Origin: a plasmid
Reading direction: 5' to 3' (one strand)
Length of the DNA: 7,047 nt
Assembly (NCBI RefSeq): GCF_053078305.1
Contig: NZ_CP166877.1
The notes under the pieces were generated by a model. That model worked only from the letters and a program-made list of their open reading frames with translations. It was not told the origin of the DNA and searched no databases. Made by a program: the position numbers and the translations under genes. Below, one piece after another: positions 2,517 through 7,047 of this stretch (position 1 is the stretch's first letter; each line of letters opens with the position of its first letter).

Positions 2517-2795
2517 GTGAAAAAATGTGTGCCAGTCCTGCTTTTTAGTGTTCTTTCTGCTTCGGTTGCCAGTCATGCGGACAGCAATGTTTTTCAACAA
2601 AAGGCCGAGAAGACAAAAAACGGCATTGTTGCGGATGTTAATGCCAGACAGAAAATGTTCAGTAACAGACTGAAGATACAACTTCAGATCGATGAGTTGA
2701 GAGCAGAGCTGGCTGGCACCAGAGATGCCCAAAAAAGAGAGGATTTGCGTAAAAAACTGGAGTCTCTGGAGCGGCAAAAGAAATCCTTACGCTGA
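2517..2795 (+). CDS. Small exported coiled-coil protein (Sec signal peptide), function unknown
   Basis: 92-aa ORF with GTG start at 2517 and AGGA 8 nt upstream. N-terminus MKKCVPVLLFSVLSASVASHA|DS is a typical signal peptide with an A-x-A-like cleavage site. The mature ~71-aa part is highly charged and heptad-like (LKIQLQIDELRAELAGTRDAQKREDLRKKLESLERQKK). The antisense ORF 2472..2777 looks non-protein-like, which favours this strand. Confidence 0.5.
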   Translation: MKKCVPVLLFSVLSASVASHADSNVFQQKAEKTKNGIVADVNARQKMFSNRLKIQLQIDELRAELAGTRDAQKREDLRKKLESLERQKKSLR

Positions 2796-3104
2796 TGGGG
2801 GCGTATTTTCCCCGGTTTCTTCCATAACCTTTTTACCGTTCAGATATTTACGGGCGAGGCGAATGCGTCTTGCCTGGTATACCGCTGAGTAAGCCTGGGT
2901 GGGATTCACACCATTACTGATTTCACTGACCACATGACGCTGATCAGCCAGTGTCAGCGTGTAAACCTGTTTCTGGATGAGGTCACGGGCTTTGTCATAC
3001 TCATATCCGGCAGCAACAAGGGTGTCGAGAAGTCGTTTGTCTGTTTTGTTCAGTTTATGGCGGGGTGATTTGCTCACATCGTTCTCCGTTTTTTCATGAT
3101 CCAA
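2787..3104 (-). CDS. Small basic protein, possibly DNA-binding (HTH-like), function unknown
   Basis: ORF-track ORF of 105 aa that begins at a TTG (RC of 3102-3104). A more plausible start is the in-frame GTG at 3077 (codon 10), with GGAG 6 nt upstream, giving a 96-aa product. The sequence is Lys/Arg-rich with a helix-turn-helix-like stretch (VVSEISNGVNPTQAYSAVYQARRIRLARKYL). Its 3' end overlaps the convergent 92-aa gene by 9 nt. Confidence 0.45.
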   Translation of the reverse strand: MDHEKTENDVSKSPRHKLNKTDKRLLDTLVAAGYEYDKARDLIQKQVYTLTLADQRHVVSEISNGVNPTQAYSAVYQARRIRLARKYLNGKKVMEETGENTPPSA

Positions 3105-3317: not shown

Positions 3318-4964
3318 ATGGCTAAAGAACTAAGTGGATATGGCCCAACTGCTGGTGAGTCTATGGGGGGAACAGGGGCGAATCTGAATCAGCAAGGTGG
3401 AAATAATAATAGTAATAGTGGGGTTCACTGGGGTGGTGGCTCTGGGCATGGTAATAATGGTGGTCAGGGAAATTCAAATTCATCTGGTTCTACATCAACT
3501 GTGATGAAAACCGGTGAGTCATATCTGACTCCGTGGGGTGATGTTGTCATTAATAATGATGGCCTTCCGGTGATGAATGGTATTGTTATGACAGAAGAGA
3601 ATTCAACTCTGGTTGATAATCCATTTGGAGGGGTCTCCAGAGTTCTTAATTCTTTAATTAGTGATATGCCATCACTTTTTGCAGAAAGCTCAGGAAATAA
3701 CAACAATAACACTGCTTCAGTTAATACTGCACCAACGAATGCTCAGGTCAGTGATATGGATAAGAGTTCGAAGGTGGTGGGTAATGTAATTAATGAAAAA
3801 CAAAAGCAGAAGAATAAAATTGCTACACAGATTAGTGAAAAACAGAAGAAAATAGAGGAGATGAAAAAAGTATTCAAGCATCATTCTTATCATGGTATCA
3901 CTGATCTTGAGAGGGATGTTGATGAGTTGCAAAAAAAATCAAATCAGCTTGATGCAGATATTAGCAAACTTAATTCTTATAAAAATACATTGCAAAGTAA
4001 AATTGGTGATGTGAATAAACAGAAGGAAGCTGAAGAAAAGGCTCGTGAAAATGCAGAGGTCGCTGAACATGAAACTCTTAATGAAGAGAAACAGGCGGTG
4101 GTGGAAGCAGAGAAGCGTTTAGATGAGGCGAAAGCTGAACTGGCGAAGGCTGAAAGTGATGTACAGAGTAAGCAAGCTACTGTTTCCAGAGTTGCAGGAG
4201 AGCTTGAAAACGCTCAGAAGAGTGTTGACGTGAAGGTCACCGGATTTCCGGGATGGCGTGACGTTCAGAAAAAACTACAGCGTCAGCTTGAAGCTAAGCA
4301 GGCTGAGTACTCCGCAGTTGAAAATGAACTTAAGAATGCTGTTAGTTTCAGGGATGGCAAGGCTGCTGAGGTAAAAGAGGCAGAGCAGAAATTAAAAGAA
4401 GCTCAGGATGCTCTTGAAAAGAGCCAGATAAAAGATGCTGTTGATACTATGGTTGGGTTTTATCAATATATAACCGAACAATATGGAGAAAAATACGCAA
4501 AAATTGCTCAGGATTTAGCGGAAAAGTCTAAAGGAAAGAAAATTCAAGGTGTTGATGAAGCTCTGGCAGCATTTGAAAAGTATAAAAATGTACTGGATAA
4601 GAAATTCAGTAAAGTTGATCGGGATGCTATTTTTAATGCGTTAGAGTCTGTTACTTATGATGAGTGGGCAAAGCATCTAGAAAAGATCTCTAAGGCTCTT
4701 AAGGTTACCGGATATTTGTCTTTCGGGAATGATGTATGGGATGGTACCCGGAAGGGATTAGAAACAGGAGACTGGAGGCCTTTATTTGTCACTCTGGAGA
4801 AGAGTGCGGTAGATTTCGGAGTGGCAAAAATTGTGGCATTAATGTTCAGTTTTATTGCTGGTGCTCCTCTTGGTTTCTGGGGGATTGCTATTATCACTGG
4901 TATTGTTTCTTCTTACATAGGGGATGATGAGCTGAACAAACTTAATGAGTTGTTAGGGATTTAA
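3318..4964 (+). CDS. cka: Pore-forming colicin of the E1/K/5/10 family; length and organisation best fit colicin K
   Basis: 548-aa ORF with AAGAGG SD 5 nt upstream. It has the three expected parts: a Gly/Asn/Ser-rich low-complexity N-terminal translocation domain, a long Lys/Glu-rich coiled-coil central region, and a C-terminal channel domain closely resembling the colicin E1 pore domain as I recall it ([59 protein letters not shown], then the hydrophobic hairpin [33 protein letters not shown]). Colicin K is 548 aa; the specific K assignment is from memory. Confidence 0.92.
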
Positions 4965-5251
4965 TATCTCTTTAGAGTGTAATATATGAAACTTGGCAAT
5001 CCTACTGGGATTGCCATTGCCAGGTAAAGTAAATAAAAAAGGTTGTATGAGTACCAAGGCTCTTTTTTTATGTTTGTCGTCTTTTGTATAAAAGAAAATA
5101 TCGTTAGTTTTGAATATGGGTATAGTAATACATGTATTGATGCAAAAAATATAAAAGCTAGAGATATATCATTGTTATAGTTAAGTGTTAAATATAATAA
5201 CCATGGCAGAAGTGATTCAGGTAAATTATGTAGGTAGTATTTTAGATACAT
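4961..5251 (-). CDS. cki: Colicin immunity protein (pore-former type, integral membrane)
   Basis: 96-aa ORF convergent with the colicin gene. It is very hydrophobic and AT-rich with about three predicted transmembrane segments ([12 protein letters not shown]..., [16 protein letters not shown]..., [23 protein letters not shown]). Position and opposite orientation between colicin and lysis genes are typical of pore-forming colicin immunity genes. Its stop overlaps the colicin stop in TTAA (4961-4964). Confidence 0.85.
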
Positions 5252-5275
5252 AATTTTTTCTTTTGTTGGAGGTGT

Positions 5276-5407
5276 ATGAAAATAGTGCTTTTTCTAATTA
5301 CAATATTATCCTTGTCAGGATGTCAAGCAAACTATATTCGTGATGTACAAGGAGGAACCGTTGCGCCATCTTCGTCTTCTGAACTGACGGGGATCGCGGT
5401 TCAGTAG
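5276..5407 (+). CDS. ckl: Colicin lysis (release) lipoprotein
   Basis: Not in the ORF track because it is short. Manual translation gives [43 protein letters not shown] (43 aa): signal peptide, lipobox LSG-C, and the conserved mature motif [11 protein letters not shown] typical of colicin lysis proteins. GGAGG lies just upstream. Confidence 0.85.
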
Positions 5408-5415
5408 AAAAGATC

Positions 5416-5441
5416 AAAGGATCTCTTGAGATCCTTTTTTT
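5416..5441 (+). terminator. Rho-independent terminator-like hairpin plus T-run at the end of the colicin operon
   Basis: AAAGGATCTC-TT-GAGATCCTTT inverted repeat followed by TTTTTTT, 9 nt after the lysis gene stop. The same motif occurs at the equivalent place in pMB1/pBR322. It overlaps the RNAII promoter -35. Confidence 0.5.
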
Positions 5442-5454
5442 CTGCGCGTAATCT
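5426..5454 (+). promoter_or_regulatory. RNAII (replication primer) promoter: -35 TTGAGA (5426-5431), -10 TAATCT (5449-5454)
   Basis: Matches the ColE1/pMB1 RNAII promoter context (TTGAGATCCTTTTTTTCTGCGCGTAATCTGCTGC), with a 17-bp spacer. Confidence 0.7.
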
Positions 5455-5467
5455 GCTGCCTGTAAAC

Positions 5468-5573
5468 GAAAAAACCCGCCTTGTGGCGGGTTCTTCCGTC
5501 CGATCAGAAGTCTTCGACCTCTTCTAATCGGCGGTGGTAACTGGCTATCGCAGAGCACAGGTACCTAAATTGT
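5468..5573 (-). ncRNA. RNAI antisense copy-number control RNA
   Basis: The reverse complement reads ACAAUUUAGGUACCUGUGCUCUGCGAUAGCCAGUUACC..CCGAUUAGAAGAGGUCGAAGACUUCUGAUCGG..AACCCGCCACAAGGCGGGUUUUUU. This gives three stem-loops and a terminal hairpin plus U-run, homologous in layout to pMB1 RNAI but with different stem and loop sequences. Confidence 0.8.
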
Positions 5574-5609: not shown

Positions 5610-6039
5610 GAACTCTGTTACCAACTTATAAATCTCGCTCTGCTAACCCGGTTACCAATGGCTGCTGCCAGTGGCGTTAAGTCGTGTCTTTTCCGGGTTG
5701 GACCCAAGAGAACAGTTACCGGAGAAGGCGCAGCAGTCGGGCTGAACGGGGGGTTCCTGCATACAGCCCGGCCCGGAGCGAACTGCCTAAGTCGCCCCGA
5801 GATACCAGAAGACGTGAGCTATGAGAAAGCGCCACGTGTCCCGCAAGGGAGAAAGGCGGAAAAGGTATCCGGTAATCGATATGGCGGGAACGTGGGGGCG
5901 CAGGAGGGAGCGATTCACCGGAAACGGTGATGATCTTTAAGCCACGTCGGGTTTCGCCACCGCTGGCGGATTTCATGGTTGAGCCGTAAGGCTCCCACAG
6001 ATGCACCGAAAAAGTGTCTGTTTTGTGAAGTCCGTCAGG

Positions 6040-6100
6040 GGGGCGGAGCCTATGGAAAAAGCGCCTCCGGCGCGGCCTTTTCCGGGGTTTTTGTTTTTTG
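6040..6100 (+). other. oriV: RNAII/DNA transition region of the ColE1-type origin
   Basis: GGGGGGCGGAGCCTATGGAAAAAGCGCC...GGCCTTTTCCGG is homologous to the pMB1 region containing the RNase H processing and DNA-synthesis start site. The exact switch point is not determinable from sequence alone. Confidence 0.5.
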
Positions 6101-6249
6101 CGCACATGTTCTTTCCCGGGTTATCCCCGGATTCTGTGGATAACGGGGTCACCGCCTTTGAGAAAGGAGAGTCCGCTCGCCGCAGCCGAACGACCGAGCG
6201 CAGCGAGTCAGTGAGCGAGGAAGCGGAAGAGCACCGGAAGCGGCATTTT

Positions 6250-6420
6250 CTCCTTACGCATCTGTGCGGCATTTCACACCCGACATGGCGCATTTTTCAT
6301 ACTATCTACACTGATGCCACATGATTAAGCCAGTATACACTCCGCTATCGCTACGTGACTGGGTCATGGCTGCGCCCCGACACCCGCTAAAACCCGCTGA
6401 CGCGCCCTGACGGGCTTGTC
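6250..6420 (-). other. oriT / bom region with a conserved ColE1-type nick site (minus strand CTGG|CTTA; nick between 6330 and 6329)
   Basis: TAAGCCAGTATACACTCCGCTATCGCTACGTGACTGGGTCATGGCTGCGCCCCGACACCCGC...GACGGGCTTGTCTGCTCCCGGCATCCG is near-identical to the pBR322 bom segment as recalled. The nick position is placed by homology to the ColE1 nic site as I remember it. Confidence 0.6.
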
Positions 6421-6475
6421 TGCTCCCGGCATCCGGTCACAGGCAAGCTGTGACCGTCTCCGGGAGCTGCATGTG

Positions 6476-6667
6476 TCAGAGGTTTTCACCGTCATCCCCG
6501 AAGCGTGCGAGGCAGCTGCGGTAAAGCTCGTCGGCGTGGTCGTGAAGCGCTTCGCAGATGTCAGCCTGGTCGTCGGCGTCCAGTTCATTCAGTTTTTCCA
6601 GCAGGGTCAGCGTCTGGCTTCTGATGAAGCGGGCCATGTTAAGGGCGGTTTTTTCCTGTTTAGTCAC
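6476..6667 (-). CDS. rop: Rop/Rom (RNA one modulator; RNAI-RNAII kissing-complex stabiliser)
   Basis: 63 codons ending ...TKQEKTALNMARFIRSQTLTLLEKLNELDADDQADICEALHDHADELYRSCLARFGDDGENL, near-identical to ColE1/pBR322 Rop. The start appears to be GTG (RC of 6665-6667) at the position of the ATG in pBR322. The ORF-track entry 6476..6907 is an artefactual N-terminal extension. Confidence 0.9.
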   Translation of the reverse strand: MTKQEKTALNMARFIRSQTLTLLEKLNELDADDQADICEALHDHADELYRSCLARFGDDGENL

Positions 6668-6710
6668 AGTTCTGTTTCTCCATGTGTGGGGAGTCTGTCG
6701 GAGGTTTTTA

Positions 6711-7047
6711 ATGATACCGGTGAAACGCGAAAGAATGCTCACGATACGGGTCACGGATGAGGAACATGCGCGGCTGCTGGCACGTTGTGAGGGAAAACAA
6801 CTTGCGTCATGGATGCGTAAGGTCTGCCTGGGGGCACCGCCATCGAAAACGTCAGGCCTTCCGACACTGGCACCGCCGCTGTTGCGCCAGTTCGCTTCGG
6901 TCGGCAATAACCTGAATCAGATAGCCCGGAAGATAAACAGCGGACAGTGGTCGGGGCATGACCGGGTTCATGTGGTGGCTGCACTGATGGCCATCGGGCG
7001 TGAACTGAGTGAGCTGAGGGATGAGGTCCGTAAACAGGGAGAACGGG
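6711..7047 (+). CDS. mbeC: Mobilization protein MbeC (oriT-binding accessory protein), 3'-truncated by the window end
   Basis: Manual translation from ATG 6711 (GGAGG 6700-6704, 6-nt spacer) gives MIPVKRERMLTIRVTDEEHARLLARCEGKQLASWMRKVCLGAPPSKTSGLPTLAPPLLRQFASVGNNLNQIARKINSGQWSGHDRVHVVAALMAIGRELSELRDEVRKQGER... with no stop before the window end. It resembles ColE1 MbeC as recalled (..LAPPLLRQ...GNNLNQ.ARK.NSGQW...). An alternative start is ATG 6735 (MLTIRV...). Confidence 0.8.
   Translation, partial: MIPVKRERMLTIRVTDEEHARLLARCEGKQLASWMRKVCLGAPPSKTSGLPTLAPPLLRQFASVGNNLNQIARKINSGQWSGHDRVHVVAALMAIGRELSELRDEVRKQGER

Follow-up and report, generated by a model that had tools for sequence, protein, structure and literature searches.

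Sequence evidence for a ColE1-type origin of transfer between the replication origin and rop of a colicin K plasmid

The minus-strand interval 6326-6392 of the plasmid sequence analysed here is very probably the oriT (bom) of a mobilizable colicin K plasmid of the ColE1 family. The sequence, hereafter the window, is a stretch of 7,047 nucleotides from contig NZ_CP166877.1 (RefSeq assembly GCF_053078305.1), and coordinates refer to it unless another record is named. We base the assignment of a ColE1-type oriT on extended homology to ColE1, on equal spacing to the neighbouring elements, on conservation among relatives and on an intact mob operon. The element is the textbook ColE1 bom/oriT, already known, and its importance beyond correct annotation is small; genome pipelines left the oriT stretch without annotation (“none” under most matches). 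The initial annotation of this DNA had placed a conserved bom/nic sequence between the vegetative origin and rop, within a 171-bp interval at 6250-6420. That placement was borne out by a 42-nt block identical to ColE1 and by ColE1-like spacing to both landmarks, and the alignments described below narrow the predicted functional core from the whole interval to about 6326-6392.

The window proved to be a rotated copy of the Escherichia coli plasmid pFHI_NMBU_10_02 (NZ_CP046541.1, circular, 7047 bp; hereafter the sister plasmid), with window position 1 corresponding to position 5553 of that record. The two sequences are equal in length and 99.3% identical, differing by 49 substitutions and no indels, and typing of the sister record returned a mobilizable plasmid of the MOBP class. 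The window plasmid belongs to the colicin K type and combines a ColE1-type replicon with a mob operon. It has its whole backbone in common, at about 95% identity, with other colicin K plasmids (plasmids of about 6988 bp; pColK-K235, NC_006881.1), a type that is common in E. coli, Shigella and Salmonella. The colicin region comprises cka (colicin K; 3318-4964, plus strand), cki (immunity; 4961-5251, minus strand) and a lysis gene (5276-5407, plus strand), and a gene for an Exc2-family lipoprotein lies at 1973-2401 on the minus strand.

The set of elements that marks a ColE1 replicon was found in full: RNAI, an origin anchor in common with ColE1, and rop. RNAI (5466-5572, minus strand; RF00106, 53.4 bits where the gathering score is 47, E = 6.6e-08) was the sole match in an Rfam scan of the whole window, with none falling inside 6250-6420. 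As RNAI lies on the minus strand, the RNAII primer reads along the plus strand toward the origin anchor, the 12-mer CCTATGGAAAAA at 6049-6060, which has one copy in the window and one in ColE1, at corresponding places. The rop (rom) gene at 6476-6667 on the minus strand starts with GTG, encodes 63 residues (Pfam Rop, E = 1.4e-36), and is annotated in the sister record; its product differs from ColE1 Rop at two residues.

The mob genes are all on the plus strand. The first, mbeC, spans 6735-7047 and continues across the circular junction to position 11, encoding 107 residues that match Pfam MobC (E = 4e-12) and a NikA-like family (E = 6.6e-10); it is annotated at 5240-5563 in the sister record NZ_CP046541.1, and an in-frame upstream ATG at 6711 offers an alternative start. 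It lies directly upstream of mbeA (1-1599), whose start it overlaps and which encodes a 532-residue relaxase of the MOBP/HEN type (Pfam Relaxase). Nested inside mbeA in another frame are mbeB (689-1249; Pfam MbeB_N, E = 7e-24) and mbeD (annotated at 1256-1489, or from a GTG at 1250; Pfam MbeD_MobD, E = 1e-35), both of which have an annotation in the sister record. An accessory gene upstream of a relaxase gene that contains nested genes is the layout described for this family (PMC5703827), and the gene order of ColE1 (NC_001371) is the same as that of the window: lysis gene, origin, oriT, rop on the minus strand, mbeC, and mbeA/mbeB/mbeD.

Mobilization of the ColE1 type requires a cis-acting oriT (bom) together with mob proteins (PMC9282650), and CTGGCTTA has been given as the ColE1 oriT sequence that holds the relaxase cleavage site (PMC5703827). 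This nic octamer, 5'-CTGG/CTTA-3' with the slash at the cut, had been assigned to the minus strand in the initial annotation, and it has a single exact match in the window, on that strand at 6326-6333 and thus inside 6250-6420. ColE1 likewise carries it once, at 1462-1469 on the equivalent strand. Taken alone, the octamer CTGGCTTA is not statistically significant, with 0.20 matches expected by chance in the window and at least one match in 36 of 200 shuffles (18%), and the case rests on extended homology. Alignment with the ColE1 bom, which had been proposed as a check, was gapless from 6100 to 6480 (ColE1 1236-1616), with 340 of 381 positions identical. Within it, identity was 161/171 over the interval first noted, 66/67 over the core at 6326-6392, and complete over the 42-nt block across the nick (6325-6366). 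A BLAST search with the region matched more than 4400 plasmid records (best E = 2e-175), and the region was also matched in 1787 of 5426 complete E. coli genomes.

Spacing agrees with ColE1 in both directions from the nick. The distance to the origin anchor CCTATGGAAAAA is 270 bp in the window and 269 bp in ColE1, the distance to the 3' end of rop is 146 bp in each, and the distance to the mbeC ATG is 405 bp in the window and 401 bp in ColE1. The separation of about 400 bp between nic and mbeC that had been read from the sequence is therefore accurate for the annotated start, and becomes 381 bp should mbeC begin at 6711; rop does sit between the two in the opposite orientation, on the minus strand with mbeC on the plus strand. 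A promoter and terminator scan of 6000-6800 detected no promoter-like or terminator-like site in 6250-6420, and returned two terminator-like matches, one at the origin hairpin and one at 6173-6193.

The nic octamer and the mob genes lie on opposite strands, minus and plus respectively, and the same arrangement is seen in ColE1 and in relatives that lack rop. ColE-type oriTs are nicked on the strand complementary to the sense strand of the mob genes (PMC9282650). The strand of the motif would thus make the minus strand the one nicked and transferred, as the initial annotation held, and ColE1 has the motif on the same relative strand. MbeA is predicted to recognize and cleave the minus-strand stretch GTGTATACTGGCTTAATC. 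By analogy with the ColE1 work reported by Varsaki et al. 2003, we assume that the cut falls between G6330 and C6329.

To delimit the element, 15 ColE1-like plasmids drawn from seven genera (Salmonella, Shigella, E. coli, Klebsiella, Enterobacter, Raoultella and Serratia) were compared in an alignment of the minus strand over 6200-6470; the window was joined by ColE1, the sister plasmid and twelve relatives of growing distance. The nick site and about 60 nt on its 5' side, along the nicked strand, form a conserved core at 6326-6392 with sliding identity of 0.87-0.99, making it the family's most conserved non-coding island. The single most conserved 15-nt window, GTATACTGGCTTA, lies at the nic octamer with an identity of 0.99 over the 15 plasmids. 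Directly 3' of the nick, identity falls to 0.46-0.57 in a variable spacer (6296-6325, minus strand). High identity 5' of nic and an abrupt drop 3' of it are the asymmetry expected if the recognition elements lie 5' of the cut, and the core at 6326-6392 is presumed to be the recognition region for MbeA and MbeC. In practical terms, the conservation profile supplies boundaries for annotating ColE1-type oriTs.

More distant BLAST matches reduced the common piece to window positions 6323-6385, and the context of those matches was informative. Plasmids of the ColE1 superfamily (MOBHEN) from Klebsiella, Enterobacter, Raoultella and Serratia that lack rop have the core of about 60 nt, the stems of the inverted repeat described below and TATACTGGCTTA in common with the window, and their core precedes mobC by about 150-170 bp, oriented relative to it as in the window; their flanks are unrelated to those of the window. 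Since these relatives keep the core upstream of mobC, it is the ColE1/ColK subgroup, and not this type of oriT, that is characterized by a rop gene between oriT and the mob operon. In pJJ1887-1, a Col(MG828) plasmid of 1.5 kb whose replicon is unrelated and which lacks mob genes, only the core is kept. In this record (NZ_CP014317.1) the core occupies 151-213, and similar 1.5-kb plasmids were found among the matches (H131 and H132). Such oriT-only mini-plasmids without mob genes would depend on a co-resident ColE1-like plasmid to provide an MbeA-type relaxase in trans.

Beside nic, the minus strand contains an imperfect inverted repeat (6330-6362) that was predicted as a hairpin in both centroid and MFE folds. 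Its outer stem pairs CCAGT (6362-6358) with ACTGG (6334-6330), and its inner stem pairs CAC (6357-6355) with GTG (6340-6338). The 8 nucleotides TATACTGG separate the inner stem from the inferred cut; a stem-to-cut spacing of 8 nt is familiar from other origins served by HUH relaxases. In the 15-plasmid alignment the two arms, CCAGTCAC (6362-6355) and GTGTATACTGGCTTA (6340-6326), are essentially invariant, and the 14 nt between them vary. The hairpin itself is weak (-4.9 kcal/mol, z = -1.04), no better than that of shuffled sequences, and it is the single-sequence MFE structure in 12 of the 15 plasmids. In the Klebsiella plasmid p65_3 the inner stem is exchanged for a longer, perfectly complementary pair, CACAGCG/CGCTGTG; covariation support for the hairpin comes essentially from this one plasmid, most stem bases being invariant. 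Folded as single-stranded DNA, the 171-nt interval 6250-6420 did no better than its shuffles (z = -0.87) and gave no large structure.

The course of transfer can be outlined by analogy with ColE1 and with HUH relaxases generally. Dimers of MbeC would bind duplex oriT DNA on the 5' side of nic and aid MbeA in engaging the melted nicked strand, where MbeA would recognize the short inverted repeat together with the 8-nt TATACTGG. Tyr19 of MbeA, acting with a metal site formed by H97, E104 and N106, would cut at G6330/C6329 and stay covalently attached to the 5' end (CTTA...), and both the coupling protein and a type IV secretion channel would come from a co-resident conjugative plasmid. As the minus strand reads in the direction of decreasing window coordinates, in 5' to 3' export the variable spacer would lead, the block at 6170-6245 and oriV would follow, and rop, mbeC and mbeA would enter last; MbeA would rejoin the strand once the reconstituted nic arrived. 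From homology we infer that the window plasmid would be nicked, cut at this phosphodiester and mobilized. The oriT core, the strand predicted to be nicked and the intact mbeCABD operon together predict mobilization of this colicin K plasmid by co-resident conjugative plasmids, and the predicted mobilizability fits the wide spread of the type in E. coli, Shigella and Salmonella.

One alternative that we weighed is that the element is a genuine ColE1-type oriT by descent that is inactive or poorly used in the window plasmid. Poor use could arise if the divergent C-terminal half of MbeA failed to couple to helpers, or if substitutions beside nic impaired processing. MbeA is 61% identical to ColE1 MbeA overall, with residues 1-150 at 90-94% and the remainder at 16-68%, and over residues 251-400 identity is only 16-50%; this divergence means that helper range and efficiency could differ from those of ColE1. 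Ten substitutions relative to the nearest record lie within 47 nt of the nick, and F failed to mobilize a related plasmid whose ColE1-type oriT is conserved (PMC9282650). Against this alternative, all four mob reading frames (mbeC, mbeA, mbeB and mbeD) are open, and the catalytic residues of MbeA are intact, namely Tyr19 and the motif HQDKGRLELN, which supplies H97, E104 and N106 (the HEN subgroup of MOBP relaxases is defined in PMC12857230). The substitutions sit in the least conserved stretch of the family, the 5' core has a single difference from ColE1 in 67 positions, and continuing horizontal spread is indicated by how widely colicin K plasmids of this type occur in E. coli, Shigella and Salmonella. 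We consider an inactive or poorly used site very unlikely, and retain the reading of a ColE1-type oriT served by its own mob proteins. MbeC, a member of the MobC and NikA-like ribbon-helix-helix families, is identical to ColE1 MbeC at 81 of 107 positions (76%). Measured in 50-residue bins, MbeA residues from about 250 to 532 show 16-62% identity to ColE1 MbeA, and mbeB and mbeD share this same stretch in another frame.

The substitutions near nic belong to a broader cluster. Seventeen of the 49 differences from NZ_CP046541.1 fall in 6150-6453, a divergence of about 6% compared with about 0.5% elsewhere. Ten of them lie in the 37 nt from 6283 to 6319 (27%), 3' of nic and all no more than 47 nt from the nick, a density that would be wildly non-random for a pre-specified stretch, this one having been picked after the data were seen. 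Eight of the ten, at 6303-6319, are inside the variable spacer. Over the 30 nt that follow the octamer, the window matches ColE1 at 25 positions, leaving 5 differences, and the sister at 23; over 6170-6245 it matches ColE1 at 64 of 76 positions, leaving 12 differences, and the sister at 75 of 76. A search of PLSDB for a donor of the 306-bp tract found none, the best non-self matches being 95.4% identical to the window version and 95.7% identical to the sister version. These patterns suggest a recombination patch or local hypervariability around oriT, and are most simply explained by patchy recombination between ColE1-like plasmids that share a cell, focused on the least constrained stretch. 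That the oriT neighbourhood is instead a hotspot of turnover, in which relaxase- or single-strand-associated recombination or mutagenesis acts at the leading end beyond a mere lack of constraint, seems to us improbable, though worth stating. The idea that the clustered substitutions are compensatory changes within a hairpin of the leading region was dropped, as 6240-6330 yielded no shared structure (alifold 0.0).

Two further elements flank the oriT. Between it and the origin lies a conserved block (6170-6245, plus strand) with two direct repeats of GGAAGCGG, at 6219-6226 and 6236-6243, and a conservation island of 0.8-0.9 at 6201-6230 in the 15-plasmid alignment. ColE1-type replicons have their lagging-strand primosome assembly (n'/PriA) site in this part of the plasmid, and from its position and conservation we take the block to be probably that site. 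AAGCGG occurs in it on the plus strand at 6221-6226 and 6238-6243; over the whole window the motif is found 4 times where 3.9 are expected, not above chance, and the block gave no significant fold.

On the other side, beyond both the oriT core and 6250-6420 and short of the 3' end of rop, is a strong palindrome (6422-6467; inverted repeats I2 and I5). As a DNA hairpin it reaches -20.4 kcal/mol with z = -5.84, and it is significant in ColE1 and in the sister plasmid as well; no run of T follows it. The window substitutions at 6436 and 6453 perfect its inner 9-bp stem, which has two mismatches in the sister (-14.9 kcal/mol). It could be an H-strand primosome site, or a site for MbeC or another protein. 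ColE1 has been described as carrying a primosome assembly site with a presumed role in priming the transferred strand (PMC4595007). Such priming would be well served by a site at the 3' end of that strand, and the assignment of the palindrome is offered as a lead only.

That the conserved island might itself be a replication element, part of a primosome assembly site or some other cis-acting portion of the ColE1 replicon, is suggested by its lying only 270 bp from the origin, by the primosome-like blocks on its two sides (the GGAAGCGG repeats at 6219-6243 and the palindrome at 6422-6467) and by the primosome assembly site of ColE1, yet we find it scarcely credible, because the same 60-nt core occurs without ColE1 flanks on other replicon types (Col(MG828), rep_cluster_2335 and rep_cluster_2401), tracks mobC and not the origin in the relatives that lack rop, and holds the octamer cited above as the relaxase cleavage site, and because pUC-type vectors, which lack the 5' half of the oriT core, still replicate.

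Other features of the window were noted in passing. An exact 30-nt match to the core of the cer Xer crossover site, GGTGCGTACAATTAAGGGATTATGGTAAAT, lies at 1940-1969 on the plus strand and is identical in ColE1 at 3909-3938; four of the substitutions that separate the window from the sister plasmid (1908-1932) fall just upstream of it. Between the Exc2-family gene and cka are two overlapping, convergent ORFs, at 2517-2795 on the plus strand and 2787-3104 on the minus strand, both of which the sister record lists as hypothetical proteins. Pfam gave no match for the minus-strand ORF, and the product of the plus-strand ORF has a signal-like N-terminus.
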